A stretch of DNA of 64,000 nt from an uncultured Candidatus Saccharibacteria bacterium (GCA_964584895.1 CAZPAW010000001.1:37936-101935); one strand, 5' to 3'; numbered from the stretch's first letter, positions 7,600-30,342 are shown. Notes: generated by a model from the sequence alone, not told the origin. Made by a program: numbers and translations.

Positions 7600-7701
7600 T
7601 AATTGGCTCAAGCTTATAATATCGATTAATATGGTCTCGTCCCTAGACTAGGCCGGTAATTTACTAAAAATTTTGGATCCTACCACCCTATATACCGGAT
7701 T

Positions 7702-8277: not shown

Positions 8278-8325
8278 TACACATATATTATAACACTCTT
8301 ATGCAACTATTTCAATACCCATCAC

Positions 8326-8658
8326 CTAAACTTGCTCTTCAACAAATTCAAGAAAAATTCGGTCCTCAAAACCACCTCTTTGTTCAAGCTTTTGACTACG
8401 AACAGCTTCGATTTTTTCTCTTGAAAATCCGAAAATTGCATCAATAGCAAGCAAGACCTCCTGTACATCTGCACGCTCTTCTAAGCCTGGGTCTTCAAAT
8501 AACTCACTCGCCTCCTCAATCAACTTTTCAAGCAGTCGTTTTTTGTATTCATCACTTTCAAGTATCCGGGTTTTTGGTACCGCCCCATTTTTTTCAATTA
8601 CTTCCGGAATACCATCGCGAACTAGTTTATTATGCTCTACTCTCACAGTTCTCCCCAA
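8326..8658 (-). CDS. MazG-like / PRA-PH-like nucleoside triphosphate pyrophosphohydrolase
   Basis: KLVRDGIPEVIEKNG ... EEASELFED ... EVLLAI pattern typical of small all-alpha NTP pyrophosphatases. Confidence 0.7.
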   Translation of the reverse strand: MGRTVRVEHNKLVRDGIPEVIEKNGAVPKTRILESDEYKKRLLEKLIEEASELFEDPGLEERADVQEVLLAIDAIFGFSREKIEAVRSQKLEQRGGFEDRIFLEFVEEQV

Positions 8659-11315: not shown

Positions 11316-11349
11316 ACATTAATAGTATACGCTAAGGTATATGGTTATG

Positions 11350-11616
11350 TTATTCGCCGTACCAATAGTCAGGCATATCCCATGCATCTGGATCTAAATC
11401 GGGATCCCTTGACCAGTTAGACCACCCTTCCGGTATTATTCCAAAATTTTCAAGTGTCTCATCATCGAATATCTGAAGCACTCTTTGTCGTTGATCATAA
11501 TCTAGGTCATCATATTCATCGAGCGCTCGTAAATCTTCTTCTGAATATTCTGAATCTGATGCTTCATGCCAATAACCTGCTTTTTCATTTTCGTATTCTC
11601 GTTCAAAATTACTCAT
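11350..11616 (-). CDS. Small highly acidic hypothetical protein
   Basis: 88 aa, rich in Asp/Glu/Trp; overlaps the upstream ATPase gene by 4 nt. Confidence 0.5.
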   Translation of the reverse strand: MSNFEREYENEKAGYWHEASDSEYSEEDLRALDEYDDLDYDQRQRVLQIFDDETLENFGIIPEGWSNWSRDPDLDPDAWDMPDYWYGE

Positions 11617-12245
11617 TTTGTATCTCCTTGTTTTAATTGATTGCTAACTATTTCTGCCACCTTTTCATACTTGTCCTTAAAGTCTTGAGACGGCTCTATG
11701 ATTACCCTGTTGGGATGTGACTGCCACGCCTTACGCGTAGCTTTTTCAGCTTCTAACACATGGGCTATTTCACTTTCTACCCTTATTTGATTGCCCGATG
11801 ATGCCTGGCGATAATGCTTGTCGCCCAGGAATGCCACTGTACCAAGGTGGATAACCACCTTATAGCGATTATGAATTTGTGAAATGTCCGGTATTTTAAA
11901 CCGATCCCTAAATTCATCGACTCCTCTTTTGAAATACGCCGCCTGATCAAGCACTCCTCTGTCGCATACAATTAACCGTTTATCGGTATTTCGGGCAATT
12001 TCTTGATGATTTGCCTCTATCGAATGTTGAAGTGCATACAGCGGATCTTGTAAAGATAGTTGCCATCTCTCGCTGTATGGCAACGCGTCGCTAGGCATCG
12101 GAAAACCTCCCCCAATCAACATATTGGCGGCTTCGGGTACCATTTCGACTTCTTTTCCAAAATCTTGCGCTAGTTGATCCAGCACTCGAGTTTTTCCGGC
12201 GCATGGCCCACCGGTCAAAACAATTTGTGGTATTTCTATACTCAT
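11613..12245 (-). CDS. P-loop ATPase (AAA_28/NadR-kinase-like)
   Basis: Walker A LTGGPCAGKTRVL and Walker B-like LIVCDRG. Confidence 0.65.
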   Translation of the reverse strand: MSIEIPQIVLTGGPCAGKTRVLDQLAQDFGKEVEMVPEAANMLIGGGFPMPSDALPYSERWQLSLQDPLYALQHSIEANHQEIARNTDKRLIVCDRGVLDQAAYFKRGVDEFRDRFKIPDISQIHNRYKVVIHLGTVAFLGDKHYRQASSGNQIRVESEIAHVLEAEKATRKAWQSHPNRVIIEPSQDFKDKYEKVAEIVSNQLKQGDTK

Positions 12246-12269
12246 TTTTTTCTCCTGATTATTAATTGG

Positions 12270-13016
12270 TTACATTGTTTGTTCATTTTCGCCTTTAGTT
12301 TTATCCCGATGCTCTGATACTTTTTTGAACAGGTCATCGCTTCCCTCATTAACATCAGGGTGGAGTCTTTTTAGTAGAGTCTTTATTATTTTTTTCTGAG
12401 CCTTAGCCGGTTCAAGATCGGCAAGCGATTCTCCCATTTCGCCGATTATGCTATCCACTTCTTTCTCTAGCCACAGGTACTCGGTCAGCACGATCGTAGT
12501 TGCTCCGTTTAGCCAATCTAGTATTTGAGTTTTTATCTCTATCCCAGCTTCAGTTTGCTCGAAGACCGGTTCTTCGTACTCAACTTTTGAATCGAAGACG
12601 CTTGGGTCTACGACAGTCTCAGGATCTTCTCTTAGTCGGTTGGCATATGCCTCTAGCTCTAATCGAGTCCTTTCCTCATTCGATGACCAAGTTGTATCCG
12701 AATCTAATGATTCGTCGCCATCATAGAAATGAATATTTTGAAACCGGAATGATATTGGTTCGTATCTAGAGATTTTTAGCGTTCTATAAGTATCGCGCCA
12801 AGCCCCGTCATAAGATTGTGTGATGCTAATTGTTATTGGGTCTATAGATTGGGGTGGCTCAACTGTAATATGTCGTCCTAAAAGCCAAGCTTCTAAATTG
12901 CCCAATCTATCTGTATATGAACGATTTCTAATCTCGTTAAGCGCACCAATTTTGAGTTTTTTGCATATTGATAACTGATTCGAATGGTTCTTTAAGGGTA
13001 AAATGCAGTTTTTCAC
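12270..13016 (-). CDS. J-domain-like protein, probably the 3' portion of a gene split by the integrated element (first ~24 codons element-derived)
   Basis: C-terminal KKIIKTLLKRLHPDVNEGSDDLFKKV carries an HPD J-domain signature. The 5' 80 nt overlap the recombinase gene, and there is no internal Met for about 190 codons. Confidence 0.5.
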   Translation of the reverse strand: MKNCILPLKNHSNQLSICKKLKIGALNEIRNRSYTDRLGNLEAWLLGRHITVEPPQSIDPITISITQSYDGAWRDTYRTLKISRYEPISFRFQNIHFYDGDESLDSDTTWSSNEERTRLELEAYANRLREDPETVVDPSVFDSKVEYEEPVFEQTEAGIEIKTQILDWLNGATTIVLTEYLWLEKEVDSIIGEMGESLADLEPAKAQKKIIKTLLKRLHPDVNEGSDDLFKKVSEHRDKTKGENEQTM

Positions 13017-14481
13017 CCTCTAAAGTCGCATTCGAAAGTATGAAGTCGAGCAGATAGCGTTTTTGCTCCACTTTCGAAGATTCCGCATCAAATAGTTCGA
13101 CTGCTCGGCTGCATACATCTAATAAGTAGCTCGCACCGATAACGAATGCCTTGTCGCCATCGCTATGGTCTTGTACTTCATCGAGGATTTCTTTTTGGCG
13201 TACCTCGATTTTCTTAGTCATACGCTCGAAAATATCATGCCGAGAAGCGAATTGCTTACGGTCTTTGAATAGCTCCTCAAGTTCTTCATCTAGCTTGTCA
13301 TACTCTGCTTGAAGCGATTGTTTCTTTTTCGTATAAAACTCCTGCTCCTTAGCGTGGTTCTTTTCAATCTCTTTAATTAATTCTGGGAGCTTGTCCTTCG
13401 GGAGCTGAATAGAGCGTAGAAGTTCACGAATTTGGTCATATAGGACTGATTCATTAAACCATTGTGCACCGTGCTTACCGCCATATTCCGTACACTTGCC
13501 ATAGACATTATTGCCTTTGCCTTTTGGTCCATCGAATGTAATGGAATAGCCACATTCATGACATCTTAGTCGCTTAAATAAGAATGGTTTACTGTTGTAC
13601 TTGGTTTTATTTTGTCCACGCTGGTTATTTACATCCTGAACTTTGTCCCAAAGCCACGGCTCAATAATTGACGGGTAGGTGTGTTCATATTCAACATCAT
13701 GAAACTTCATGCGTCCAACATAGAAGGGATTTTCAAGTATCTTTGCCCACTGACTTGTGCCAATTGGCTTCCCTTTGTCGCGGCTTCTTAGACCCTTCTT
13801 CTTCATCATTTTTGCAATCACTTTATATGGCAAACCAGTGGAACGATGCTCAAAACCTTCTTTAATTAAGTGGTCGCGTTCAGGGTCGAGACGAATACCC
13901 TTGAATATCACTTTTCCTTTTGCGTCGTGTTCCTGAAAATTCTCATAGCCAATTGGTGCCCGTCCTATCCATATGCCATCGTTAACTAGTTGGTCGAAAC
14001 GACGCTTAACATTATCACGAATAGCTGCTGAGTAGTACCCAGCTAGTGCAATGTTTACGTCTAGCTGAAACCACTCTGTGGCGGACGAGTCCTTATTCAT
14101 AATTAGGTGGTCATGCGGGAAGTGGAGCTCAATCTTATTCTCACGACATAACCTAACGAGTGCTACTTTTTCATCACCAGATGAATCGCGACTAAATCGG
14201 TCAACTTTGTCAAAAACGACAACTATCGGTTCAGTCTGTTTAGTTTTAGCTATTGGCTCAAGGACTAATTCCTTAAATCGTTTTCGCTCTTTTGACTTAA
14301 ATGCCGTCTCGTCGAACTCAACATATGTACAATCTCTACCGACAACCCAACCTTTTTTTCTCGCATATTCCTTCACGCGTCGCTTTTGTGCAGGAAGCGA
14401 CTCTATCTGCTTTACATCCGATACTCGTGCTACTAAATAATTCATTGTTGTATTCCTTACATTATTATAAATGCTTACCAT
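12937..14481 (-). CDS. Large serine recombinase/integrase (probable start Met13 at 14445, RBS AAGGA)
   Basis: YLVARVSDVKQ (catalytic Ser), VDRFSRD, a recombinase domain, zinc ribbon CHECGY...YGKC and a coiled-coil region. Confidence 0.9.
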   Translation of the reverse strand: MVSIYNNVRNTTMNYLVARVSDVKQIESLPAQKRRVKEYARKKGWVVGRDCTYVEFDETAFKSKERKRFKELVLEPIAKTKQTEPIVVVFDKVDRFSRDSSGDEKVALVRLCRENKIELHFPHDHLIMNKDSSATEWFQLDVNIALAGYYSAAIRDNVKRRFDQLVNDGIWIGRAPIGYENFQEHDAKGKVIFKGIRLDPERDHLIKEGFEHRSTGLPYKVIAKMMKKKGLRSRDKGKPIGTSQWAKILENPFYVGRMKFHDVEYEHTYPSIIEPWLWDKVQDVNNQRGQNKTKYNSKPFLFKRLRCHECGYSITFDGPKGKGNNVYGKCTEYGGKHGAQWFNESVLYDQIRELLRSIQLPKDKLPELIKEIEKNHAKEQEFYTKKKQSLQAEYDKLDEELEELFKDRKQFASRHDIFERMTKKIEVRQKEILDEVQDHSDGDKAFVIGASYLLDVCSRAVELFDAESSKVEQKRYLLDFILSNATLEGEKLHFTLKEPFESVINMQKTQNWCA

Positions 14482-14498
14482 TCAAATCTCTACTTATG

Positions 14499-14519
14499 GG
14501 AGGGGCTTAATGCCCCTCC
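14499..14519. other. Perfect 8-bp GC-rich hairpin (GGAGGGGC-TTAAT-GCCCCTCC) between the two recombinase-related ORFs
   Basis: Inverted repeat read directly; no U-tract on either strand. Confidence 0.6.
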
Positions 14520-14521
14520 GC

Positions 14522-14959
14522 TTACATAGCCAGCCTTTCGGTGATTACTCGATATTCAGCCTCGTTCATAAGCGGCTCGTGCAAGCCATGGTATATCTTG
14601 CCTTCATAGCTAATTTTGCCCCTATAAAAAGGATTATTTATCACCCCATAGACTTGTCGCCGAGTAGCTCGTGGACTAATCAGTTTTGCTACTTCGTCTA
14701 TAAAGCTCTCTTTTGATTTATCATCGAGAAAATCTTCTATAAGTTTTTGCAGGGCACGACCCTTGCGGTTAATCTTCATAACTTTTGTTTTGAAATTGGG
14801 ACTGTAGCCAAACGGTGGTCTGCTTACCCAGTAACCGCTTTCGGCTCTGTTGCGTAATCGTTGCATAATACGCTCCCTGCTGTGTTCTGCGGCGACCGTT
14901 TTCATATACCCATTTAGTATTTCAGAAAACTCTTCTGCACTTACTTTTTGGCTTGTCAT
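14522..14959 (-). CDS. Stand-alone 'Recombinase' (PF07508-like) domain protein lacking the catalytic resolvase domain and zinc ribbon
   Basis: ESGYWVSRPPFGY ... VYGVINNPFYRGKISYEG matches the recombinase-domain pattern of large serine recombinases. It is only 145 aa. Confidence 0.6.
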   Translation of the reverse strand: MTSQKVSAEEFSEILNGYMKTVAAEHSRERIMQRLRNRAESGYWVSRPPFGYSPNFKTKVMKINRKGRALQKLIEDFLDDKSKESFIDEVAKLISPRATRRQVYGVINNPFYRGKISYEGKIYHGLHEPLMNEAEYRVITERLAM

Positions 14960-15153
14960 TTCGTTAATTCCTCCGTATTTGAGTTAGTTAGTTTCTCCAA
15001 TTCTTTTTGCTGCATGTCCATCTGGATGAGCGTCTCCATAAAGTTCACTAGATTAGCCATTGCTTCCTCATCCGACTTTTGCACATCAGACTTGTTTCCG
15101 AGAAAACGACTATTACTATTAGATGCTCGTTTATTCGTTTCCGTATTACTCAT
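14956..15153 (-). CDS. Small hypothetical protein
   Basis: 65-aa ORF overlapping both neighbours by 4 nt and 8 nt, consistent with operon coupling. Confidence 0.4.
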   Translation of the reverse strand: MSNTETNKRASNSNSRFLGNKSDVQKSDEEAMANLVNFMETLIQMDMQQKELEKLTNSNTEELTK

Positions 15154-16216
15154 CAGGCTGTTCCTCTAGCCAGTAATACTTGGAGCTGCCTCGTCCTTTG
15201 GTAGGTTGTGGTAACGCTCCCTCTGCAACCCAGCGATTGAGTAGCTTGCGTAAATCATGCTCGTTGGTTGCAACACTCCGCTCCGTCAACTTTTCTAATA
15301 GGTCAATTTGTCGTAGTTGCTTATGCTCCGTTAGTAGGTCAACTACAGCAGGTAGCAAAATAGCGGATTTTTCTGGCGGTCGCCTAAAGACGCCTAGGTA
15401 TTCAAAGCTAAAGTTATCCTCGTCTACGTTGACCTTTACTTGGAAGGGGTCAAGCTCGACATCATATCGTTGCTTTTCTTGCGTAAATGTCAAATAGAAC
15501 TTTTCTTTACGACTAACGCCAACATGGCTATCAACGGCAGCTAAAATATCGCTACTTCCACGCATCTCGTTACCCGCTCCCGTGTTCATTGTTCCCATTT
15601 TGCGGTGATGTTGGGTCACAAGTATAGCTACGTCTTTTTTCGTAAAGCTCCGTAGCTTTTGAAACACCTTAGACATATCTCTGGCACTGTTTTCATCGGC
15701 ACCGTGTACTCGGATGAGGGCGTCAATAATGACCAATCCGATGTTATTCTCGGAACAAAAGTCCAGCACCTGGTCTATATGGCTATCATCGAGCTGAAAT
15801 CCTCCAAACGATGAAACATAGATAGGTAGGTCTTCGGCTGCATGTAGCTGCTTGAGACGCTTTTGCATAAGACGCTCACCATTCTCTTCGTCGATGATGA
15901 GTACGCCTGTTTTCTGTGTGTTAAATTGTCCGAAAAGCGGTTCACCTTTTGCGGCTGCGAGTGCTATTTCTAGTAATGTGTATGTTTTGAATGAGCGTGA
16001 TTGCCCCGATAGAATAGTAATAGAGGAAGCAGGTATTAGCCTGTCTACTATGTATTCTTGGTCGGGAAAATCCTTAGCCATTAGCTGGCCTATTTCTTTT
16101 ACTTCGAACATTGCTGTTCTCCTTCGATATGCGAGAGACCGACTAGCGCGAGCACCATTTAGTATTTGGTTTGCTAGAAGGTCTCTTAAAAAGTGCTCTA
16201 TCTTCACGATACGCAC
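15146..16216 (-). CDS. RepA/AAA_25-like RecA-fold ATPase with a C-terminal winged-helix-like region (probable start at 16111, RBS AAGGAG)
   Basis: ITILSGQSRSFKTYTLLEIALAAAKGEP (atypical Walker A, G-x4-FKT), VLIIDEENG (Walker B) and VTQHHRK. Confidence 0.7.
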   Translation of the reverse strand: MRIVKIEHFLRDLLANQILNGARASRSLAYRRRTAMFEVKEIGQLMAKDFPDQEYIVDRLIPASSITILSGQSRSFKTYTLLEIALAAAKGEPLFGQFNTQKTGVLIIDEENGERLMQKRLKQLHAAEDLPIYVSSFGGFQLDDSHIDQVLDFCSENNIGLVIIDALIRVHGADENSARDMSKVFQKLRSFTKKDVAILVTQHHRKMGTMNTGAGNEMRGSSDILAAVDSHVGVSRKEKFYLTFTQEKQRYDVELDPFQVKVNVDEDNFSFEYLGVFRRPPEKSAILLPAVVDLLTEHKQLRQIDLLEKLTERSVATNEHDLRKLLNRWVAEGALPQPTKGRGSSKYYWLEEQPDE

Positions 16217-16291
16217 ATACGAAGGAGATTAATTTGAGCTACGAAATGTCCCGGCCAGAGACTAGCCGTAACAGATATAAAAACTATGCAA

Positions 16292-17143
16292 TCACGAATT
16301 ATTTACGATTTTACTACTGAGTATTTTTAAGTGCTGATTAAAGTCATCTTGCTGCTCTTTGGTGAGGTTTACTTGAGGCGTAAAACGAACCCGTTTTTCA
16401 CTAATGCCGTCAAAGAAAATAGCCTTCAACTTTTTGCCAAATCCAAGATAACGAACCTGCTCACCCAAATCGTCATAGGTCGCACACCCGTTAAGGGCTT
16501 TAACATCGGCTAGAGCAACTGTTCTTTCGGTATGACTTTGTAGATAGTGCATGAAGTTGTAAAGTCCGCCGTCAAGACGAACTCTCTTTTGCAAGATTAA
16601 CTCTCCATCGGTATAGCCAACCAGCACTTTAGTGCCGTCGAACTTCACACAAGCAGTTGATGACATTTTGCTTACTTTAGGGGTACTATCTTGCGTTGGT
16701 GGTGAGTAGTTATTGTCAAGATATGGCTTTGCTGCCTCGATATACTTCTCATAATATTTAAGAAATTTGGTTAAATTAGGCTCGACTTTAAAGCCTCTAA
16801 TCATATCAATCGGGTGATTTAATCCGACGTCTTCTTTGGCCGAATCAACCTCAAAACGTCGAATAACGCCCTTGTCTCGTAGTAATTCAAGAACTTTCAA
16901 TTTACCACTTGCTATATTCATACCAAAACTTGGTATTTCACGGATATCTCCATAAAATCCATCAAACCATTGCTCTTCATCTAGCGGGTCAAATTGTGCC
17001 CAGTAGTAAGCGTTTGGGGTCTCTGCCTGTATAGTAACTGAATTGTTACTTTTCTGGCCCTGCAAGCCATCTTTAATATCTTGGAGAACCATAGCTGTTA
17101 GCATGATTTTTTCGTCAGGTTTTTCAAAAGTTTTATCGGACAT
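16292..17143 (-). CDS. Hypothetical protein, first gene of the leftward element operon
   Basis: 283-aa ORF with no motif I can recognise. Confidence 0.5.
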   Translation of the reverse strand: MSDKTFEKPDEKIMLTAMVLQDIKDGLQGQKSNNSVTIQAETPNAYYWAQFDPLDEEQWFDGFYGDIREIPSFGMNIASGKLKVLELLRDKGVIRRFEVDSAKEDVGLNHPIDMIRGFKVEPNLTKFLKYYEKYIEAAKPYLDNNYSPPTQDSTPKVSKMSSTACVKFDGTKVLVGYTDGELILQKRVRLDGGLYNFMHYLQSHTERTVALADVKALNGCATYDDLGEQVRYLGFGKKLKAIFFDGISEKRVRFTPQVNLTKEQQDDFNQHLKILSSKIVNNS

Positions 17144-17308
17144 TCTATGACCATTTTACCAATTTATTCCATATTTCTAAAAAACAGCAAAAAGTCGTAA
17201 AGTCCACAGTAAACCGACAGTTATTGCAATAAAACTTTATAATAAAAACTCCTAAAAACGACCTTTTCGCCACAACGTAATTTTGTGAAAAATACTATAT
17301 AATAAAAG

Positions 17309-17414
17309 GGCTTAAACCAATTTCAGGAAGAGTAGTATTTGCTACTTGATTTGTGTCATATAGTCGGCACTCGTCAATAAGCATTTGGACACAAATCCTG
17401 ATGTTGGTTTAAGC
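17309..17414. promoter_or_regulatory. Nested inverted-repeat region in the divergent control region of the element
   Basis: Outer GCTTAAACC (17310-17318) pairs with GGTTTAAGC (17406-17414). Inner GATTTGTGTC (17348-17357) pairs with GACACAAATC (17388-17397). There is also AGTAG/CTACT (17331-17346). Confidence 0.55.
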
Positions 17415-17483
17415 ACCTAGGCGAGTGTCGATTTTATTTGAGCTCGTTTAGGCGAATAAATTAACAGCCTAAGGAGGGCTCAA

Positions 17484-18038
17484 ATGAATACAAAAGAGAA
17501 AAAGTCAGTATTTAAGCGGTGGTGGTTCTGGGTCATTGTCGTTATCGTACTCATCGGTATCGGCGGTGCGGCAGGTGGCAACAAGGGCGATACCGCAACC
17601 AACACGGGTAGCAACGGCTCACAAGACCAAAAAGCAGAGGAAAAGACCGAGTTCAAGGTTGGCGAAACAGCGAGCTTCGATAACAAGACAATTACCGTTA
17701 CCGATGTACAACGCAACTACGATACTGGTAACCAGTTTGCTCAACCGGAGTCTGGCAAAGAGTTCGTTATTGTAACCGTTAATATCGTGAATAATAGTGA
17801 TTCTAACCTTGACTACAATACTTTTGAGTTCAAGATGCAGGACTCTAACGGCGTTCAGCAGAGTGAAGCGATTACCGCTCTTTCAGAAGGAAAGCTCAAC
17901 AGTGGCTCACTCGCCAAAGGTGGTAAAGTTACCGGCAAGCTCGCCTATGAAGTTCCGAAAGATGACGCAGGTTTGAAACTCCTGTACCAGAACTTTAGCT
18001 TCTTCGACAACAAGGCCATTACATTTAATTTGCAATAG
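17484..18038 (+). CDS. DUF4352-like membrane-anchored Ig-fold protein
   Basis: N-terminal TM helix, then FKVGETASFDNKTITVTDV ... EFVIVTVNIVNNS ... GKVTGKLAYEVPKD; RBS AAGGAGG. Confidence 0.75.
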   Translation: MNTKEKKSVFKRWWFWVIVVIVLIGIGGAAGGNKGDTATNTGSNGSQDQKAEEKTEFKVGETASFDNKTITVTDVQRNYDTGNQFAQPESGKEFVIVTVNIVNNSDSNLDYNTFEFKMQDSNGVQQSEAITALSEGKLNSGSLAKGGKVTGKLAYEVPKDDAGLKLLYQNFSFFDNKAITFNLQ

Positions 18039-18058
18039 CAGCGCAATAGCAGGAAGAA

Positions 18059-18084
18059 CACCCGCTTTGATAGGCGGGTTTTCT
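18059..18084 (+). terminator. Rho-independent terminator after the DUF4352 gene
   Basis: CCCGC-tttgatag-GCGGG followed by TTTT. Confidence 0.65.
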
Positions 18085-18130
18085 GTATCTCTATATTGAG
18101 CTGTTCTGACAAAGCAAATATTATTAACAT

Positions 18131-18439
18131 ATGAAGCCGATTCGTTCATTCCGTGCAATCTGTCGAGACTACAGACTAACTCCATTACAGACCGACACAT
18201 TACAGTCCCTCGTAGACCAGCGTAGAGGCGTCTTACATCCGTACTGGATTCAGTTGGCACTCTTTGTACCATACGACTTCGCCAAGCGTTTATATGACGA
18301 GTTAATCGAGAATGAGTGGGCGGTACCTGATGAGGTCGAAATTGACGACACTGTTTATGAGTCTGAACTAACTGATAGTGAGATAGAAATCATTGCCGGT
18401 ATTGAACTGCGAGCTAGTAGCCATTTCTCATCGCATTAA
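18131..18439 (+). CDS. Hypothetical protein (weak call)
   Basis: ORF only, no clear RBS; converges on and overlaps 18414-18647. Confidence 0.3.
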   Translation: MKPIRSFRAICRDYRLTPLQTDTLQSLVDQRRGVLHPYWIQLALFVPYDFAKRLYDELIENEWAVPDEVEIDDTVYESELTDSEIEIIAGIELRASSHFSSH

Positions 18440-18647
18440 CGAAATCTAAAAATACGGCCTTTCGATGTAGCCCGTATTTTGTATTGAGTTCCTTGGTTTT
18501 GCCTGCCGTCGCCTCGTTTATTCTATCGAGTATCGGCTGAGCAAGTGCCCTGGCTTCTTCACGAGTTATTTCACCAGTAACATAGCGACGCTTGATGTCT
18601 GCGATGTCTGTTCTGTTTTTAGTAGCTTGGTCGATTGGTGTTCCCAT
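18414..18647 (-). CDS. Hypothetical small protein (weak call)
   Basis: ORF only. Confidence 0.35.
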   Translation of the reverse strand: MGTPIDQATKNRTDIADIKRRYVTGEITREEARALAQPILDRINEATAGKTKELNTKYGLHRKAVFLDFVNAMRNGY

Positions 18648-18783
18648 AGCCTAAATATATTGTCCGAGTAAAGGTGGTTCAAGGCTCAAAATGACAGGAG
18701 ATTATCAGATAACAGCAAGCATACCTAGTAAAACTTCGGTGTAAATAGTACAATCATGACAAGCGTTTCACGCCAGACCTAAA

Positions 18784-18911
18784 CCGTATCTTATACGGCA
18801 TGGTTGAATAATCCACAAAGAGAAACAGCTCGTCATGAGTACTTCTCTTTGTGGTCATTGCTGGAAACGGCAATGGGTGGCTCTCGGGCTGCCGCTCGTG
18901 GCGGGCTTTTT
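18784..18911 (+). promoter_or_regulatory. Structured leader upstream of the surface-protein operon (four hairpins, the last followed by a T-run)
   Basis: CCGTA/TACGG (18784-18798); perfect 12-bp CCACAAAGAGAA/TTCTCTTTGTGG (18813-18854); CATTGC/GCAATG (18856-18875); GC hairpin plus TTTTT (18888-18911). Confidence 0.55.
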
Positions 18912-18959
18912 GGTTCGCTGAAACTATATAACAAAAGATACCCTAGAGGAGGCGGTACC

Positions 18960-19499
18960 ATGTCAGAAGCACACAATACAGAACAGGCAGAGGGTCAGGG
19001 TCTTGCGATTACATCACTGGTTCTCGGTATTTTAGCAATTATCACATGTCTTGTTTGGTATATCGGGATTGTGCTTGGCGTTTTAGCCATTATCTTCGGA
19101 GCAGTATCGGTCAAGAAACGAGGACGCAAGAAAGCGATTGCAGGAATTGTAACAGGTAGTATTGGTGTTATTCTGAGTCTGCTTATTATTTGGATGGTAT
19201 CGGCGGCACTACCTAGCCTACAGAAGAGTCAGCGAGACACCGCTCGCAAAAATGACATTTCAGTTTTAGTAACTGACGTATTGTCATTCCAGACGGAAAA
19301 TCGGGGGCAGCTTCCGGCTACAAATAACCTAACTACTTCCAGCCTTTCTCAAGTTACCTCCCTTGCTAGCGAGGGCGAACCGACAACCGACAAAGCCGTG
19401 TTTAAGACTGGTGTAAATTGCGACGGCGTATCGTCTGCTCGAAATTACTCAATCACTATTCTACTAGAAAACGGTTCGCCGTATTGTCAAGGTTCGTAG
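18960..19499 (+). CDS. DUF4190-like membrane anchor fused to a type IV pilin-like globular domain
   Basis: RBS AGGAGG precedes ATG 18960. TM helices are followed by LPSLQKSQRDTARKNDISVLVTDVLSFQTENRGQLP (pilin alpha1-C/alpha-beta pattern) and a C-terminal Cys...Cys pair. The ORF-track start at 18804 translates the structured leader. Confidence 0.6.
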   Translation: MSEAHNTEQAEGQGLAITSLVLGILAIITCLVWYIGIVLGVLAIIFGAVSVKKRGRKKAIAGIVTGSIGVILSLLIIWMVSAALPSLQKSQRDTARKNDISVLVTDVLSFQTENRGQLPATNNLTTSSLSQVTSLASEGEPTTDKAVFKTGVNCDGVSSARNYSITILLENGSPYCQGS

Positions 19500-19516
19500 C
19501 CAGAGGATTATGAGAG

Positions 19517-20191
19517 ATGGAACGGTTCTTTAGCGGATTAATCACAACCCTGAGTGTGCCGATACTGCTATTGAATGTGCTTGGCGGCATAGTCGGAGGT
19601 ATTTGGTTGATGATTGCTGGAGAGTGGTCGCTTTTTATCGGCGGCTTACTCTATATGATGTTTGGTGCGATGATTATCGGACTGTTGCTTATGCCTAGCA
19701 TACTTTTCGCGGCACCTGCTGCCGCTTTCGCCGAAAAGAGGAAGTACGTTCTATTCTTCATTTTCGGCTTGTTAGGTATCGCATATACTTATGGGCTTAT
19801 TGCTGTATCTACATACTACATTGCTGACATCGCACTGAGCTCTCAATCTGCTCCTCTATGGGCAAGTCTGCTGTGGCTATATGCCGTAGTGCTTGCTCCT
19901 TGGCAATATATGGCATCAAAGGAACAAGACAATACCTCAACTGGCATGACGACATTCTTCCTCGCTTTGGGAGTTTTTGCATTGATGATTTGTATCGGAG
20001 TATTTGGCATGACATTGGGTCAAGCGTTTCCTGTGCTAGTTGCGATTCTCGTCATTTCTTTGGTTATTCAGCTATTGTTTACCTATGCACTTACTCGTGC
20101 CGAGAGGCACACAAACCGACACGATGACGTTATAGATGTTGACGAACAATCAGAAGATGACAATAAGCGAACATGGGGAGATTTGGAGTAA
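19517..20191 (+). CDS. Polytopic membrane protein (about 6 TM) ending in WGDLE
   Basis: Hydrophobic segments throughout, with an acidic C-terminal tail ...DDNKRTWGDLE. Confidence 0.6.
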   Translation: MERFFSGLITTLSVPILLLNVLGGIVGGIWLMIAGEWSLFIGGLLYMMFGAMIIGLLLMPSILFAAPAAAFAEKRKYVLFFIFGLLGIAYTYGLIAVSTYYIADIALSSQSAPLWASLLWLYAVVLAPWQYMASKEQDNTSTGMTTFFLALGVFALMICIGVFGMTLGQAFPVLVAILVISLVIQLLFTYALTRAERHTNRHDDVIDVDEQSEDDNKRTWGDLE

Positions 20192-20583
20192 TGAGTAAAC
20201 AACAAAAACGAAGCCTAAAGCTGCCGATATTTTTGATTATAGGACCAGCTCTCGGACTAATACTATCAATTATTCTATACGCGATAATTAATTTTATCGT
20301 TGCAAGCTCTATGCCAGATATTTCATCTTCCCCTAGTATTTCGGAGGGTGCGAGTATCGCACAGGGTGCTGATGAGCAAGACTTATACGGTAGTGACGAT
20401 GGCTCTATGTTTCGGACTATATCAAATATCCTGCTATTCTTGCTTGGTGCTGGGAGCATGTTGGCATTTGTACCGTGTCTTGTGGTTGGTATAATCATGC
20501 TCAATAAACGCCGTAACTCGCAAATAGATGATACGCCTACGGTACGGAGTAGGGAGTCACGGGACTGGGGAGATTTAGAGTAG
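20191..20583 (+). CDS. Two-TM membrane protein ending in WGDLE
   Basis: Starts at MSKQQKRS (TAATG overlap with the upstream stop); tail ...RSRESRDWGDLE. Confidence 0.55.
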   Translation: MSKQQKRSLKLPIFLIIGPALGLILSIILYAIINFIVASSMPDISSSPSISEGASIAQGADEQDLYGSDDGSMFRTISNILLFLLGAGSMLAFVPCLVVGIIMLNKRRNSQIDDTPTVRSRESRDWGDLE

Positions 20584-21401
20584 TGCAACTTCCACATTCA
20601 AACGCTCGTCAAAACTATATAGACCAAATTAAAGTCGTCGAGGCAAATCTCAGAGACGCTACATCTGGCGAGAAAGATAATGCGCTACTTGCTCAAGTTC
20701 AGAAACGGCTTGATTCTCTAGCTGAAAAATATCAATATAGTGAAGAAATCGGTGCGGCGAAGTATAAACTCTATGAATTACAGGCATTAGTTCATTATTT
20801 CAATGGGCATGATGACGATGCGCTTGATTTTATCAATCAGGCAATAGAAACTCGCGGCGAAACATATGCAAAAGCGGAAAAACTCAAAAAGCAATTATCA
20901 CTCGGTGATTCTTATGTCACGAAAACTACTAATCCTGACAAAATGACAAAAGAACAGCGACGCAAGCAAAAAATTGGACTTGAGGGCTGGCTGGCACTAT
21001 TTACTGTTGGCGTAATCTTATCTGTAATCCTTTACCTAATAGCGGCTGGATTGTGGCTTTATAACCTCGGTAATTTAAGTAATACAGCAGACGACTTTGC
21101 GGCGGGCTTATTGAGCCCTTATTATTCATTTTTGATGATTAGCTCATTTGTCATGGCTTCTTTAGCGGCTTGGTTGCTATTCCTGCTCTTCAAATGGAAA
21201 CGCTTGGCGCGATGGATTGGTATTGTTCTGCTTTCGCTATCAATACTAATATCGTTTATTGACTACATGTGGTACTCAGACCTAACGACCCAGCTAACTG
21301 GACTTGACCCACAAACAGGCAATTCAGGTGTTCTCTGGGCTGTCGTTTGGATAATCTATCTCTGTGTATCAAAGCGTGTAAAAAGGACGCTCACAAAATG
21401 A
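20583..21401 (+). CDS. Helical/TPR-like N-terminal domain fused to a DUF2569-like 4-TM domain
   Basis: GTG start overlaps the upstream TAG; GLEGWLALFTVGVILS and the following TM helices. Confidence 0.55.
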   Translation: MQLPHSNARQNYIDQIKVVEANLRDATSGEKDNALLAQVQKRLDSLAEKYQYSEEIGAAKYKLYELQALVHYFNGHDDDALDFINQAIETRGETYAKAEKLKKQLSLGDSYVTKTTNPDKMTKEQRRKQKIGLEGWLALFTVGVILSVILYLIAAGLWLYNLGNLSNTADDFAAGLLSPYYSFLMISSFVMASLAAWLLFLLFKWKRLARWIGIVLLSLSILISFIDYMWYSDLTTQLTGLDPQTGNSGVLWAVVWIIYLCVSKRVKRTLTK

Positions 21402-21772
21402 GCGAGCGTAAAGAAGATTACTCATGGCTATATATCGGGATTGCGGTGCTTATTGGCGGTGCGATTTTGTACTTTCTCTTTTTGCCGCCTAGCTCTGGTT
21501 CTGTAACGGTAAAATATCGTGATGACAAAGTAAATATTTCGGCTACTAACTTTGAGCCGCTCAATAAATCGGATTCAACCGTCAAGGGCGCATGGTACGA
21601 CAGCAGCAATGAATACATGGTCATCAAGCTCGGTAGTACCTATTATCATTACTGCGGTATGCCGAGTAGTGTATGGGGCGGCCTAAAGGCTGCTTCATCG
21701 CCATATGAATATTATCAAGACGATGTAAAAGGTAATTTCGACTGTCGAGTTAATCCTGTACCGAGCTATTAG
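21398..21772 (+). CDS. Membrane-anchored KTSC-domain protein
   Basis: ATGA overlap with the upstream gene. VKGAWYDSSNEYMVIKLGSTYYHYCGMPSSVWGGLKAASSPYEYY fits the KTSC domain pattern. Confidence 0.65.
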   Translation: MSERKEDYSWLYIGIAVLIGGAILYFLFLPPSSGSVTVKYRDDKVNISATNFEPLNKSDSTVKGAWYDSSNEYMVIKLGSTYYHYCGMPSSVWGGLKAASSPYEYYQDDVKGNFDCRVNPVPSY

Positions 21773-21774
21773 TT

Positions 21775-22089
21775 ATGAAAAATATGATTTCTATCAATAA
21801 ATATCTATTAGCCAGTTTGATTGTTGCTACGTTAGCTGCTGGTAGCTACGCAGGTTTTTACTATACAAATCAACATTACCAAAACAAAGAAGCGAGAGAG
21901 CTAAGCCAAGAGGCTGAAACTGACCAGAAGAATCTGATATGTGAGGCACGAGTTCAACGTGGCAAGACGGGTGACGTTAAAAGCGACTACTTTATTTTTG
22001 AACGAAGTGCGAAGCAAGAAGATTGTGAGCGGTTTATTGAATACAAAAATATTCCAGATGATACCGAGGGCTATTGGATGGGGTTTTAG
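21775..22089 (+). CDS. Small membrane-anchored hypothetical protein
   Basis: N-terminal TM helix (LLASLIVATLAAGSYAGFYY). Confidence 0.5.
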   Translation: MKNMISINKYLLASLIVATLAAGSYAGFYYTNQHYQNKEARELSQEAETDQKNLICEARVQRGKTGDVKSDYFIFERSAKQEDCERFIEYKNIPDDTEGYWMGF

Positions 22090-22101
22090 GAGTAGAGGCG
22101 T

Positions 22102-22995
22102 ATGAATAATAAAGAACTTGAACAAAACAAAGCAGCGAAAGAACCGAGTAAGCTCCGTCGTATTCTTTACGGATTTTCATGGTCAATTATTTTCCCAATT
22201 ATTATTGCGGTGCCGTCTTTCATTATTATGCTGATGATACTTAGTCAAATCCTGACCTCCAACGTCAATAATCAAGACTTTAGTAACACTCTAGCAACTG
22301 ACGGTATATTTTATCTTGAACTATATCTCTTTATCTTCGTTACGGTGCTTGTAGCTGTTCTATTCCTCGCTAAATGGCTACTTCGTACCCGTAAACGATT
22401 GTTTTTCCGTAGTGGGGCGAAAGTACTTGGTGTCTATATTTGGGTTGGTATTTTTGCTACTGGCCTGACGATGGCACTCATTACAAAAAATCCCGACGCC
22501 ATTAAACCACCCGCCGAACAAAACGCACAGCTTATGCAAGTTATCGCAGATGTCGGTGGTGATACAGCTAAGTTAAAAGATGTATCAGTGAAGTATGTTG
22601 CTGACTACAAAGATGGTTTCAAGAATCAGGCGGGCGAATACGCATCTTACGATGACAGCAAAGGCAACTTCTCGTATGGTGTTATGACTGTTAAACAAGG
22701 GCTTGACCCAGAAGAAGAAAAAATAGTTGTTGCTCATGAGTATCTACACCATGTATGGGAAGCGGAGCTTGACCCCGCTACATTGCACGACTTGACGAGC
22801 CAACTGATGACACTTTATGGCAAGGACGACTGGTTCAAGACAAGAGTAGCCACTTATTCGGATACGAACATGCTATTACCGACAGAGTTATTTGCTTTTT
22901 ATTGCACCGAGTCATCAGACCAGTATTTGACACCATACGTTATTGACGAATGTAACAAACACATAAACCGTGATGCGCTGCGATTTATACGCTAA
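22102..22995 (+). CDS. Membrane-anchored putative zinc metallopeptidase (HExxH)
   Basis: Three to four N-terminal TM helices and VVAHEYLHHVWE (HEYLH). Confidence 0.6.
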   Translation: MNNKELEQNKAAKEPSKLRRILYGFSWSIIFPIIIAVPSFIIMLMILSQILTSNVNNQDFSNTLATDGIFYLELYLFIFVTVLVAVLFLAKWLLRTRKRLFFRSGAKVLGVYIWVGIFATGLTMALITKNPDAIKPPAEQNAQLMQVIADVGGDTAKLKDVSVKYVADYKDGFKNQAGEYASYDDSKGNFSYGVMTVKQGLDPEEEKIVVAHEYLHHVWEAELDPATLHDLTSQLMTLYGKDDWFKTRVATYSDTNMLLPTELFAFYCTESSDQYLTPYVIDECNKHINRDALRFIR

Positions 22996-23013
22996 TCGTA
23001 TACTAATTTATAT

Positions 23014-23886
23014 ATGGATGACGAACATTTAACTGCACTCTACAGCCAAATGATGGACGAATGGTTCAGCTCATTAAGGGTTGGCGATAAAGTCTATAAC
23101 TACAGCGATGACAGACCAGATAAAGGCATGGTCAGAAAGCTGCGTGAAGGAGTTATCAAAGAAATCCATGATAATGGCAGGTATGACCGCTACGTTATCG
23201 TCGATAACCTAACGACAGGTAGACAAAACAAATGGGGCGACTATGCTCTGGTAAGACCACCAGAGATTGAGGCAGTGTCTGAAAAGTTGACTCAACTACA
23301 TACGGTTGATGAAGCTGATTTATTGCAAAAACCAGAGAGAATAGAAAAGACCGTCGATGAAAAAGCGGCACAGGCAGACTATGAGTGGCTTCTCGAAAGT
23401 GCTAAAGAGTTACTGAAAAATGAAGATGTGCAACTAGGTAAATGTAGCGGCATATACGGGGCATTTAATAAGAAGACTGGCGAGTGTATCTACATCGGTA
23501 AATCACGCTCTTCAATTGCTACCCGTTGGCGTGAACACGCTCGGTTCTGGAAAAAGCTACGACCAATTCACAGGCAACCACTCCTGACGCAATACCTGCA
23601 TTTTTTCAGCGACCAAATCGAGTGGAAGGTGCTGCTCCCTGTTGCAAGTGATGTAGATAACGACCTACTCGAATACAGCGAGCGACGCCTTTTTGAAAAG
23701 TACCAGCCGATTGCAAACTCTATCGTGCCAAACGGCACATTCTACGGCAGGAGCGTTATGGAGGGCGAAGGCGATTCTATCTCGGTGTCAGAGTGGAATC
23801 CTCGTATGGTTGAAATCAGAATACGCAAAGGTCAGTTCAATGGTTTCTCTGATGGTAAATCTCACTTCGATAACGAGTTAGATTAA
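23014..23886 (+). CDS. GIY-YIG nuclease-domain protein with an unknown ~150-aa N-terminal domain
   Basis: CSGIYGAFNKKTGECIYIGKSRSSIATRWREH and a downstream Glu (LEYSERRLFEKYQP). Confidence 0.7.
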   Translation: MDDEHLTALYSQMMDEWFSSLRVGDKVYNYSDDRPDKGMVRKLREGVIKEIHDNGRYDRYVIVDNLTTGRQNKWGDYALVRPPEIEAVSEKLTQLHTVDEADLLQKPERIEKTVDEKAAQADYEWLLESAKELLKNEDVQLGKCSGIYGAFNKKTGECIYIGKSRSSIATRWREHARFWKKLRPIHRQPLLTQYLHFFSDQIEWKVLLPVASDVDNDLLEYSERRLFEKYQPIANSIVPNGTFYGRSVMEGEGDSISVSEWNPRMVEIRIRKGQFNGFSDGKSHFDNELD

Positions 23887-23994
23887 AAACGCAAAACCTA
23901 CTCCTATATAAGTAATTCGTTTTCTCGTTTTTTGCTTTGGTAGTCAAACCGTTTATTTTAGGGTTAAAAGTCATGGGCAGTATAATGAAATTAG

Positions 23995-24894
23995 ATGCCG
24001 ATATATACCAGAGTAATGCCTGAAAACTTGAGAGAATCAGTCGCTCATTTTGAGAGTCTAATTATTGATATTGAAAAAGAGATGGACGGTGCGAGTGTGC
24101 CAAATGGTGATTCCACTCGATGGCACATAGCCTCGACGTCGCTTTACCTCGCAACACAACATGCCAGAGCAATATGTATACTGGTGCAACGCCACGATAA
24201 TGAAGCTGCTGGATTACATTTACGAGCATTATTTGAAGTTTATATTCGACTGGTGTATATGCTGTCAAAGGCTAATAATTCACGCTTATTGGCAGTCCTA
24301 TACGCCGACGCTGTAAGCTACGAGCGATACAGCAAAGATGTAAAGAAAGTAAACCTAGACGCATACGAGTCAGTACCGAATGAAGTACAAGACCGCTTAA
24401 ACCAGCTCAATGCTAGGATTGAAGTGCATATCAAGGACACGATACAACAAGAGAAAATATATCGTAAGCAATTAACAGACATGGACCACACAGAGTTCTT
24501 AGACGATAAAAATAAGCTCAAGTCGGGCGATAGCATAAGTCGGCACCTCTCTATAAAGTATATGTGCAGATGTCTCCAAGACGTTGATGGACAGAACTTG
24601 CTAAAAGAATATGCCTCAATTTACAGCAACTTGTCGATGTACGCTCATACAAGCACTGTGTATTTAGCGAAAATGGTTCACAGACAGCCAAACGGTAATA
24701 TCCGAATCGGCACAGTGTCTGGTGAAGAAAATGAAGAAGTCTCCATACGCAATGTCGCCACGGCACATCATTACCTGGCGGGAGTTATTTTGCAGTGTTT
24801 GCGTGAGAAGGGACTGTCGCAAACAGAGCTAGAGGATAGACTAAATAGCTTAGAGAATAGCAAAAGTAAATATGATGAATTTCTAACGGTTTAG
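23995..24894 (+). CDS. All-helical hypothetical protein (possibly DUF5677-like); near-leaderless
   Basis: LHLRALFEVYIRLVYM ... YSNLSMYAHTS pattern; TATAAT (23981-23986) lies 8 nt before the ATG. Confidence 0.45.
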   Translation: MPIYTRVMPENLRESVAHFESLIIDIEKEMDGASVPNGDSTRWHIASTSLYLATQHARAICILVQRHDNEAAGLHLRALFEVYIRLVYMLSKANNSRLLAVLYADAVSYERYSKDVKKVNLDAYESVPNEVQDRLNQLNARIEVHIKDTIQQEKIYRKQLTDMDHTEFLDDKNKLKSGDSISRHLSIKYMCRCLQDVDGQNLLKEYASIYSNLSMYAHTSTVYLAKMVHRQPNGNIRIGTVSGEENEEVSIRNVATAHHYLAGVILQCLREKGLSQTELEDRLNSLENSKSKYDEFLTV

Positions 24895-25009
24895 AATTAT
24901 TACGCTAAACCGAGTTCTCCTAGCCCACTACCTAGATATTGTCGTGCTAGCCTGATTTCTCTAGATATGCTAATAATAGAGCGGTAATGTTGCTTTCGGA
25001 ATACTTCCA

Positions 25010-25138
25010 CTAAGGGGCGGCACCCCAGATTAAGCTGATATCATCCAGATCTTCAATACTCGGCTCGCTCGGCTGAAGTCCGGCTTCTCGCACTAGGATA
25101 CCTCCGTTTGCAAGTTCTAAATTTTGATCTTTTTCCAT
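25010..25138 (-). pseudogene. Orphaned 5' fragment (42 codons) of the host gene interrupted by the element
   Basis: My own translation: MEKDQNLELANGGILVREAGLQPSEPSIEDLDDISLIWGAAP*. It is below the ORF-track size cut-off. The frame joins 12270-12947 across the shared GGTGC. Confidence 0.45.
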
Positions 25139-25184
25139 TATTATTGGTCCTTAGTTACATTGATATATTGATGATTTTGGCTAT

Positions 25185-25207
25185 TAAAAAAGCCGAATAG
25201 ATCGGCT
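25185..25207 (-). terminator. Rho-independent terminator (second of two) downstream of the kinase-like gene
   Basis: Minus strand: AGCCGA-tctat-TCGGCT-TTTTT. Confidence 0.65.
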
Positions 25208-25227
25208 TATGTTTGAATTCTTGGCAT

Positions 25228-25259
25228 AAAAAAACCTCCTCGTTTATGGTTGGAGGGGG
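25228..25259 (-). terminator. Rho-independent terminator (first of two) downstream of the kinase-like gene
   Basis: Minus strand: CCTCC-aaccataaacga-GGAGG-TTTTTTT. Confidence 0.6.
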
Positions 25260-25304
25260 TTGTCGGTTTTTCGAAACCTCTTTTAAAATACTACATTTAG
25301 TATA

Positions 25305-25889
25305 TTATGTCAAGTACTTTTCTAATGCTTTTTCAGCCTTTTTTTTGAATACTTCGACATCGTTGCCGTTATTTTCTAAAAATATATCAGCCTTATCTTT
25401 AACAGCGCTCATGTTAAGCGTGGCTAAGTCGCCCTCAGGATGCATCTCACGAACTTCATCCTCCATGAACTCAGCATAACTACGATTATCTTCACCAGCA
25501 CGATTACGAAGATGTGCGTTGGCTTGGATACGCTCATAACGGACCTTGGGATCCGCGTCAATCCATATCACCTGCCCGCCAAACTCATGAACAACCTCTA
25601 CTTCACTGGGATGACGTAAACTGGCAATAGCTAAACCAGAGTAAGCATGTTGTTTTTTCTTGTAATGTTCTATTGCTTTTTGTGCAAGAACCCCATGTCC
25701 AAAATCACGTCTCCACTCCGCACTAAGTCGCGATGTTTCTGTGCGATTTATAGGCACATTACGAAGACGTAATTCATCTCTCAACATTTCAGTAACTGAT
25801 ATAAACAAAAAATTGTGGCGCTCCGCCAACATGTCGCCAACAGTGTCCTTCCCGCTCCCGTTTGTTCCAGAAATCCCAATCACCTTCAT
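25305..25889 (-). CDS. P-loop nucleotide kinase family protein (dephospho-CoA kinase / dNMP kinase-like)
   Basis: IGISGTNGSGKDTVGDML Walker A. Confidence 0.6.
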   Translation of the reverse strand: MKVIGISGTNGSGKDTVGDMLAERHNFLFISVTEMLRDELRLRNVPINRTETSRLSAEWRRDFGHGVLAQKAIEHYKKKQHAYSGLAIASLRHPSEVEVVHEFGGQVIWIDADPKVRYERIQANAHLRNRAGEDNRSYAEFMEDEVREMHPEGDLATLNMSAVKDKADIFLENNGNDVEVFKKKAEKALEKYLT

Positions 25890-26233
25890 TCTATATTAAT
25901 CCTATCTTCCTTTTCTTTTGAATAATGAGGGGTATTTATGAGTAGCATCTTCATTCTACCTTTATAACTAAACTTTGTTTTTGGAGGAATACTTATTAGA
26001 TCGCCATCCCGAACAACAAATTCTTCATCATCGAGCAAAAAAATGCCTTCGCCTTTTAAAATGTAATAGTTATATTCTGCCTCTTGCTCTTTATAGGCGA
26101 TACGTAAACGATCATCCACCTCAATAATGAGATGTTGAGTTAAGGGACTATTGGTTTTAAAGAACTTTCCTCGATGACCATCAATATCAAAATCAAAAGA
26201 ATTTGGCTCACTGAAAACATATCTATTACTCAT
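25886..26233 (-). CDS. Cupin-fold protein
   Basis: About 115 aa; beta-rich pattern [29 protein letters not shown]. Confidence 0.55.
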
Positions 26234-27351: not shown

Positions 27352-27359
27352 ATGATAAA

Positions 27360-29096: not shown

Positions 29097-29179
29097 GTAT
29101 ATAGCTTATAGCTAATAGTAGAAAGCTGAAAGCAAAAGCTTAATATCTTACCGAAAGAATAATAGATTGCGTTTTTTGA

Positions 29180-29908: not shown

Positions 29909-29920
29909 TTTTATATCTTT

Positions 29921-30289: not shown

Positions 30290-30342
30290 TTTTTTGATTC
30301 TTTTTTCTTTATTTTTTAAATAGACATTTTAGTCTTTATTAC

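Follow-up and report, generated by a model that had tools for sequence, protein, structure and literature searches.

The interrupted gene and its integrase

We analysed a stretch of 64,000 nucleotides from an uncultured Candidatus Saccharibacteria bacterium (GCA_964584895.1 CAZPAW010000001.1:37936-101935), hereafter the window, in which a 12,074-bp integrative element with a large serine integrase gene lies inside a lineage-specific gene for a protein of 264 amino acids (aa). An earlier note, made from the sequence alone, had described a non-phage serine-recombinase element of ~12.1 kb within a gene that could be rebuilt in frame, and this was confirmed by contigs carrying the empty site (L001, L002 and L003). 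The landmarks from which it argued, namely an integrase gene ending at 12937, an open reading frame (ORF) at 12270-13016 containing LLKRLHPDVN and a 42-codon ORF running from 25138 to 25010, are all present. As a whole, the locus is best explained, and we hold this with high confidence, by a serine-integrase element that entered the 264-aa gene as a secondary landing site, the primary bacterial attachment site (attB) probably being a transfer RNA (tRNA) gene.

The integrase ORF is intact and spans 12937-14481 on the minus strand, encoding 502 aa when read from MNYLVARVS (12937..14445) and 514 aa from an upstream ATG at 14481. Its last codon, for alanine, and its stop codon are host DNA past the crossover. 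Pfam detects a Resolvase domain (PF00239, 6e-14, residues 17-164) and a Recombinase domain (PF07508, 7.4e-11, residues 201-287), and an integrase family of the PHROG collection is matched at 1e-50. These domains and the AAA_25 domain of a neighbouring ATPase were among those that the earlier note had named for profile searches; the zinc-ribbon family PF13408, also named there, was not detected in the integrase, although it is present in some homologues. Across 26 homologues the A-R-V-S motif (residues 6-9, with R7-V8-S9) and three cysteines (Cys295, Cys298 and Cys318) are invariant. An AlphaFold2 model with a predicted local distance difference test score (pLDDT) of 82.6 has a helix at residues 122-155 followed by an alpha/beta domain, beta-strands at 301-331 and long helices at 350-453. 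Foldseek aligned this model over ~560 columns to full-length serine-integrase-DNA complexes (E 1e-15 to 1e-11); among the structures matched (9y66, 9dxh, 9tep, 9iu2 and 4kis) are those of phiC31 and Bxb1 and the C-terminal domain of the Listeria integrase, and the catalytic domain fold matched those of TP901-1 and Sin. The invariant cysteines, the model and the structural matches together indicate a zinc-ribbon domain with an embedded coiled coil.

At the level of primary sequence the similarity to solved integrases is very low, with no phmmer match to solved structures and a profile search that recovered the TP901-1 catalytic domain only (E=0.003). The best NCBIfam matches were CcrA and CcrB, at 58.8 against an equivalog cut-off of 700. 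Nevertheless, catalytic, recombinase and zinc-ribbon/coiled-coil domains were all found, as was conservative exchange at 2 bp, and the window recombinase is a bona fide large serine integrase.

The interrupted gene lies on the minus strand. Its 5' fragment (25017..25138) comprises codons 1-40 and the first two bases of codon 41, and the ORF then continues to a stop at 25010, giving the 42-codon stub MEKDQN...IWGAAP*. The 3' fragment (12270..12944) starts at the GC of the crossover core, which supplies the opening two bases of codon 41, and extends to the stop; it is annotated by NCBI as a 211-aa remnant (P0127). The ORF at 12270-13016, which ends ...LLKRLHPDVN..., has a spurious N-terminus contributed by an alternative frame of the integrase 3' end; homologues of the target protein begin with MEKDQN and not with MKNCILPLKN, the start that would have spoken against an insertion.

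The target protein has 10 relatives among 1.84 billion representative proteins and belongs to no Pfam or NCBIfam family. It had been called J-domain-like, and the HPD motif behind that name is indeed conserved in full-length distant homologues. An hhalign comparison with the E. coli DnaJ J-domain gave 70% probability over 38 columns; the Pfam DnaJ match (E=0.029, 14.9 bits) is below the cut-off of 27.8, and a Foldseek search of the AlphaFold model (pLDDT 79) against the PDB found no significant neighbour and no J-domain match. The label is therefore weakly supported and should be read as meaning that the protein carries an HPD motif. The insertion interrupts a helix that is modelled with confidence (residues 33-48), so the target gene is almost certainly inactivated.

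Empty site, crossover and element boundaries

When the fused protein proposed in the earlier note was used as a query, it retrieved P0001, a 264-aa protein that is 100% identical and reads ...ISLIWGAALNEIR... across the junction; intact target proteins are also represented by P0126 and P0128. The fusion is thus a single uninterrupted gene as predicted, one alanine longer than the ~263 aa first estimated. The uninterrupted gene was found on three Logan contigs from other samples, L001 (ERR4450749), L002 (SRR11524814) and L003 (SRR11524805), which match the window flanks at 99.99-100% identity and lack the interior. Gene order on these contigs is that of the window flanks, namely DnaG, RpoD, a cupin, a kinase, the 264-aa gene, AAA_28, an 88-aa ORF and PolA, so the flank alignment that had been suggested as a check did recover the unbroken ORF.

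In the L001 alignment, window positions 35138..25017 match at 99.99% and 12944..2270 at 100%, and the two alignments overlap by 2 bases of L001. On the gene strand, attB reads ...GGGGTGCC[GC]GCTTAACG..., the right junction ...GGGGTGCC[GC]CCCTTAG... and the left junction ...AAATTGGT[GC]GCTTAACG...; in longer form, attB is ...AATCTGGGGTGCCGCGCTTAACGAGATT..., the left junction (attL) ...CTCAAAATTGGTGCGCTTAACGAGATT... and the right junction (attR) ...AATCTGGGGTGCCGCCCCTTAGTGGAAG.... GC is the only sequence common to all three. The crossover is therefore placed in codon 41 of the target gene, with one GC at 12943..12944 (gene-strand junction AAAATTGGT[GC]GCTTAACGAG, set by the L001 alignment boundary and its 2-bp overlap) and the other at 25017..25018 (GGGGTGCC[GC]CCCTTAGTGG, from the same alignment), and the element consists of the interior 12945..25016 plus one GC, 12,074 bp in all. 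The pentamer GCACC, put forward earlier as the shared core, does occur at 12943-12947 and 25020-25024; the true core is GC, and the right-hand GCACC lies 3 nt away from it. Precise excision is predicted to leave exactly the sequence of the empty site. Sharing of 2 bp between the junctions and the empty site is the signature of a conservative serine-integrase exchange between the element's own attachment site (attP) and attB at the central dinucleotide.

A second contig with the gene-site right junction, L017 (SRR13355622, 100% identical), was found through a look-up of the DUF5677 gene at the right end of the element. The interior is also compositionally foreign, in a pattern that is not due to chance. 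Its GC content is 42.5% compared with 39.2% for the rest of the window, where the highest 12-kb host window reaches 41.5%, and its tetranucleotide distance from the host, 0.0174, compares with 0.0070 +/- 0.0013 among 12-kb stretches of host sequence. Both profiles, whose comparison had been proposed beforehand, make the element an outlier, and the boundaries of the interior agree with its absence from L001, L002 and L003, its composition and the 98.7-99.8% identical copies described below.

Four contigs end exactly 30 nt after the first core base: L109, which carries attL (SRR13355620 and two more samples); L106, which carries attB (SRR11524815); L017, which carries attR; and L016, which carries attR of a tRNA site. 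L109 and L106 terminate in an identical 30-mer, and L016 measures 12,132 bp, the length of the interior with both GC copies (12,076 bp) and a further 28 nt outside each core. If Logan assemblies are built with k=31, such ends are graph branch points at which occupied and empty paths merge, and both alleles would be present in those samples. This suggests that empty and occupied sites coexist within some samples, as a polymorphism and not necessarily through ongoing excision.

The same element at tRNA-Gly(TCC) in other hosts

The same element, 98.7-99.8% identical in nucleotide sequence, is present on seven further contigs (L011-L014 and L021-L023), where its left junction lies at a tRNA-Gly(TCC) gene. 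Here the 3' end of the integrase gene runs into the tRNA gene on the opposite strand, and the junction reads ...AAAATTGGT[GC]GGGCGGAGAGAATCGAACTC. The element brings with it TGGTGC (TGGT+GC), the complement of GCACCA, and the discriminator base and CCA of tRNA-Gly(TCC) are rebuilt. Right junctions elsewhere were located through the last element gene (DUF5677); at the tRNA site the right junction, present in L015, L016 and L018, is CCACTAAGGG[GC]ACCAAAGAAC... (GGG[GC]ACCAAAG), and L020 shows the last gene in a further context. In L024 the left end abuts a different tRNA-Gly(TCC)-like sequence, the anticodon of which was read by eye.

The integrases of these copies are nearly the same protein. 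That of L024 (P0125) differs from the window integrase at one internal residue, besides the host-encoded last residue, and the closest database integrase (P0003/P0123), the one encoded on L011-L014 and L021-L023, has one residue changed and another C-terminal tail, ...NWC-GRRESNSHH.... The flanks have a GC content of 48.1% at the tRNA site and 39.2% in the window host; with copies so nearly identical, this places the element in clearly different Saccharibacteria lineages.

As a separate observation, L015, from the 48%-GC host, has at 5056-7166 another and distinct large serine recombinase of 536 aa with an HTH_36 protein as its neighbour, 1.6 kb past the right end of the element at the tRNA-Gly site. 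This could belong to a neighbouring or tandem island.

tRNA 3' ends as targets of the integrase family

A genome-wide scan for related integrases returned 80 loci, nearly all in metagenome-assembled genomes of Candidatus Saccharibacteria, with two from Streptomyces at ~40% identity. In 59 of the 80 loci (59/76 of those with enough flank) the integrase gene directly adjoins, at its 3' end, a tRNA gene that runs in the opposite direction. Among relatives with at least 59% identity this holds without exception (11/11), ten of them at tRNA-Arg and one at tRNA-Gly(TCC). The codon for an invariant C-terminal tryptophan (W500), TGG, is the complement of the tRNA CCA, and this is true across Arg, Gly, Asn, His and Asp targets; the overlap was seen at 12940-12951 of the window and at the integrase 3' ends of L025-L069. 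Because TGG is the reverse complement of CCA, the integrase ORF appears to read through attP into host DNA, and attP would accordingly lie in the 3' end of the integrase gene. The tail of the protein varies with the site: it is one host-encoded residue (Ala) long in the window and 15 residues long at tRNA-Gly, and in the circular form the ORF is predicted to be 37 codons longer and to encode 539 aa. The predicted gene-strand attP is ...CTCAAAATTGGTGCCCCTTAGTGGAAG....

The backbone of AAA_25 ATPase, 65-aa ORF, 145-aa ORF with a recombinase domain (RD) only and integrase is conserved in the family; the cargo is not. Mycobacteriophage serine integrases have been reported not to use tRNA genes (PMC9262239), and we found no literature on serine-recombinase elements in Saccharibacteria. 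We put forward tentatively, as a possibility that falls somewhat short of an even chance, that this integrase family is an undescribed Saccharibacteria branch with several features in common: targeting of tRNA 3' ends, an attP within its own 3' coding end (the Trp/CCA overlap), a palindromic GC crossover at least in the window element, LOOT RNA-carrying plasmid-like islands that move between distant lineages, and occasional use of look-alike sites in protein-coding genes.

The nearest integrase relatives outside Saccharibacteria, at ~40% identity, are from Streptomyces and Kitasatospora (L047 and L048; P0114 and P0119). Cultured Saccharibacteria live as epibionts on Actinobacteria, the phylum of both genera.

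The gene site as a probable secondary attachment site

The same enzyme and attP act at the tRNA copies and in the window, and the family rule is tRNA targeting; for these reasons the insertion in the 264-aa gene is most likely a secondary (pseudo-attB) event, with the tRNA as the putative primary attB. The gene site was probably used after transfer of the element into a different Saccharibacteria lineage, one with 39% GC in place of 48%. One arm of the site, B', may partly mimic the T-arm of the tRNA: the core-adjacent GAGATTAGAAATC lies in register with GAGAATCGAACTC, and 9 of the 17 positions conserved between the two tRNA-Gly sites match, a score reached by only 0.6% of GC sites in the window. 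The symmetry of the gene attB, detailed below, is a further modest point in favour.

Several points weigh against the explanation of the locus as a whole. The half-site resemblance is modest, with p about 0.006 per site, and comparison by eye of the other, non-tRNA attB arm between gene and tRNA sites showed no convincing in-register match, so that the designation as a pseudo-site rests mainly on the behaviour of the family. There are no tRNA genes in the 64-kb window, and the state of this genome's own tRNA-Gly(TCC) is thus not visible in it. The junction of the attP circle was not found, the right-end 28-mer having 0 matches in JGI metagenome contigs and IMG/VR, and the predicted 539-aa integrase of the excised form is absent from the protein cluster. 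The argument from 30-nt contig ends assumes the k of 31, and SRR13355620 and SRR13355622 may share a project with the window assembly, so their independence is possibly incomplete.

It is unlikely, although less so than the other alternatives, that the gene is a genuine second primary attB for an enzyme of dual or relaxed specificity, which would use the tRNA-Gly 3' end or the gene according to host. The gene attB is more symmetric around GC than that of the tRNA, with AGATTA at positions 9-14 of both arms against 2/22 symmetric positions; it is this hexamer, and not the differently spaced TAAG motifs once suggested as half-sites, that a symmetry scan brings out. The insertion is moreover not limited to the window but recurs in contigs from SRR13355620 and SRR13355622. 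On the other hand, it is known from one lineage only, and the occupied contigs may all go back to one event. In a sister species with a 77% identical protein (L004, 10091-10152), the equivalent site, GC-GCTTTACCGGATTCGAAAC, has an arm, GGATTCGAA, that is more T-arm-like than that of the window, yet it is empty in all seven contigs, and the close relatives of the integrase are all at tRNA genes (11/11).

The core dinucleotide itself is unusual. The orientation in which a serine integrase inserts its DNA depends on the central dinucleotide alone, and palindromic ones permit both orientations (PMC3783163; bioRxiv 10.1101/2024.10.10.617699). The GC core is self-complementary and so departs from the non-palindromic, orientation-fixing dinucleotide that is typical of these enzymes. 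At the tRNA, ACCA is rebuilt in one orientation only, and selection could explain the uniform orientation there; the gene site offers just one event to judge from.

Other genes and the nature of the element

Directly upstream of the integrase, a 145-aa protein (14522..14959, minus strand) resembles only the recombinase domain of the integrase, with 21% identity to residues 128-260, and at least seven relatives keep it in that position. As a candidate accessory or directionality factor, it might modulate binding to the attachment sites. Next to it lies a 65-aa ORF (14956..15153, minus strand) that is conserved in two relatives and, from its position and conservation, is likewise a candidate directionality factor. 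Recombination directionality factors share no common sequence family, and excision of the element would be expected to need one.

The next gene encodes the AAA_25 (RepA/primase-helicase-like) ATPase (15146..16216, minus strand; Pfam 6.8e-27), which also matches primase/helicase proteins in PHROG searches and in tblastn against phages and is a distant relative of RepA or primase-helicase proteins from phages and plasmids. Its Walker A motif, GQSRSFKT, has no Gly before the Lys, and the variant GxxxS[F/Y/C]KT is kept in five homologues from related elements, so it is neither a sequencing error nor a sign of decay. This helicase module may serve replication of the excised circle. Beyond it lie a 283-aa protein with no match in Pfam, PHROG and further family searches (16292..17143, minus strand), a DUF4352 secreted or lipoprotein-like protein (17484..18038, plus strand) and a 77-aa ORF (18414..18647, minus strand) that is conserved in four related elements and adjoins a LOOT RNA in one of them (L027).

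In the window a LOOT RNA (Rfam RF03000) lies at 18776..18893 on the plus strand, between the 77-aa ORF and a membrane-protein operon that it precedes, and matches the full-length model with 76.3 bits against a gathering score of 46.4. LOOT RNAs also occur in the related elements L027 (3292-3414) and L032 (6740-6856), on the strand opposite to the integrase, and this RNA may be a regulatory RNA of the integrase's element family. The main text of Weinberg et al. 2017 has no LOOT entry.

The membrane and secreted cargo operon (18873..22995, plus strand), which is not conserved in related elements, encodes DUF4190, two membrane ORFs, DUF2569, a KTSC-domain protein, a 104-aa ORF and a 297-aa protein with an HEYLH motif. 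It is followed on the same strand by a GIY-YIG-domain protein (23014..23886) and a DUF5677 protein (23995..24894), the final gene before the right end. The contents listed in the earlier note, an ATPase with GQSRSFKT, an RD-only ORF and a surface-protein operon, were borne out, except that the GIY-YIG assignment is borderline at 22.5 bits against a cut-off of 22.6. A PADLOC search for defence functions in the cargo gave only a weak PDC-S52 match of the DUF5677 protein. No relaxase, coupling protein or type IV secretion gene was found among the 17 element ORFs with Pfam and NCBIfam, and the element is best described as a small plasmid-like integrative island.

It is rather improbable that the element is instead a phage satellite or decayed prophage that moves in the hijacked particles of a helper phage. 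Its size of 12 kb and its combination of an integrase with a primase-helicase-like AAA_25 module resemble satellite backbones; relatives of the ATPase (25-32% identical) are annotated as phage primase/helicase or RepA, and the DUF4352 protein matches PHROGs annotated as Sie-like superinfection exclusion. Against this, searches of Pfam, PHROGs and NCBIfam found no capsid, portal, terminase, tail or packaging gene in the element, as the earlier note had held for capsid, terminase and tail genes, megablast against 50,697 phage records gave no nucleotide match, and the right-end sequence is absent from IMG/VR. No capsid-redirecting gene was recognised either, in an element where several ORFs are without a family.

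A domesticated, regulated switch is very improbable. The element would then resemble skin in sigK, SPbeta in spsM or the Anabaena fdxN element, with programmed excision rebuilding the 264-aa gene; as a less likely extension of the family proposal, the insertion would turn the HPD-motif protein on and off reversibly. In favour of a switch, the exact ORF would return on excision, both forms of the site seem to occur together in samples, and the integrase has a weak NCBIfam match to XisF (36.7 bits against a cut-off of 375). However, this element is mobile and occupies tRNA genes in other hosts, its target is an orphan gene with very few relatives, no regulatory link is visible, and strain polymorphism explains the coexistence equally well. 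An assembly or binning artefact, in which an element contig was chimerically joined into a host contig, can practically be dismissed: the window does belong to a metagenome-assembled genome (P0124 and P0127 on a 402,212-bp NCBI contig) and elements found in several contexts are prone to misassembly, but a chimera would not place both junctions at the same 2-bp GC of one codon with the ORF perfectly restorable, and separate Logan assemblies recover attL (L109) and attR (L017).

Comparison with known systems

The mechanism at this locus is the known one of serine integrases, and nothing here changes it. Like the phage integrases of phiC31, Bxb1, A118/LI and TP901-1, the window integrase has catalytic, recombinase and zinc-ribbon domains and a coiled coil, and it acts with short attachment sites, a 2-bp crossover and no target duplication. 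Phage large serine integrases typically insert within protein-coding genes (PMC9262239). In contrast to these systems, the window element has no phage structural module, the usual target of its family is a tRNA 3' end, and its palindromic GC core should allow either orientation (PMC3783163; bioRxiv 10.1101/2024.10.10.617699). Pseudo-attB integration by phiBT1 in Nocardia and by phiC31 in heterologous genomes offers a close parallel, with the same enzyme and attP acting at a partly native-like site in an unusual host (PMC5937489); those cases involve engineered vectors, whereas the window case is natural and was seen in metagenomes.

As in skin with SpoIVCA, SPbeta with SprA and the fdxN element with XisF, a serine-recombinase element splits an ORF that precise excision would restore. 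Unlike them, the window element shows no sign of programmed excision and is mobile between hosts and sites. SCCmec islands with Ccr recombinases are likewise non-phage, non-conjugative cargo islands inserted site-specifically by large serine recombinases, but the window element has a single recombinase gene together with a truncated paralogue, uses another target, and scores far below the cut-off for CcrA and CcrB. In the islands and phages with tyrosine integrases that target tRNA genes, as in the window family, the end of the element rebuilds the tRNA 3' end. Integration-dependent immunity phages also have attP inside a coding region, so that integration alters a protein C-terminus (PMC9262239). 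The window system differs from the tyrosine-integrase tRNA systems in its serine recombinase, in an identity block of 7 bp (GCACCAA) and not of at least 25 bp, and in that the altered gene is that of the integrase itself. Among serine recombinases, the small enzyme of the filamentous phage phiRSM enters a tRNA-Ser gene.

Several variant features set this locus apart: the targeting of tRNA 3' ends and the Trp/CCA overlap that goes with it, the palindromic core, natural use of a secondary site and spread across lineages. The genomes of Saccharibacteria and other Patescibacteria are tiny, few mobile elements have been described from them, and genetic tools for these bacteria are very limited. The locus offers a compact 502-aa serine integrase with a defined attP, two natural attB and real attL, attR and empty-site sequences, potentially an integration tool. 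It also documents the recent transfer of one element between lineages of very different GC content, shows a serine integrase using a secondary site in nature, and raises the mechanistic question of how orientation is controlled with a palindromic crossover dinucleotide.

A second variable region lies near the locus. Window positions 29134-35454 (~6.3 kb) have no blastn match to the corresponding ~2.9 kb (3202-6091) of L004, the contig of the related species.

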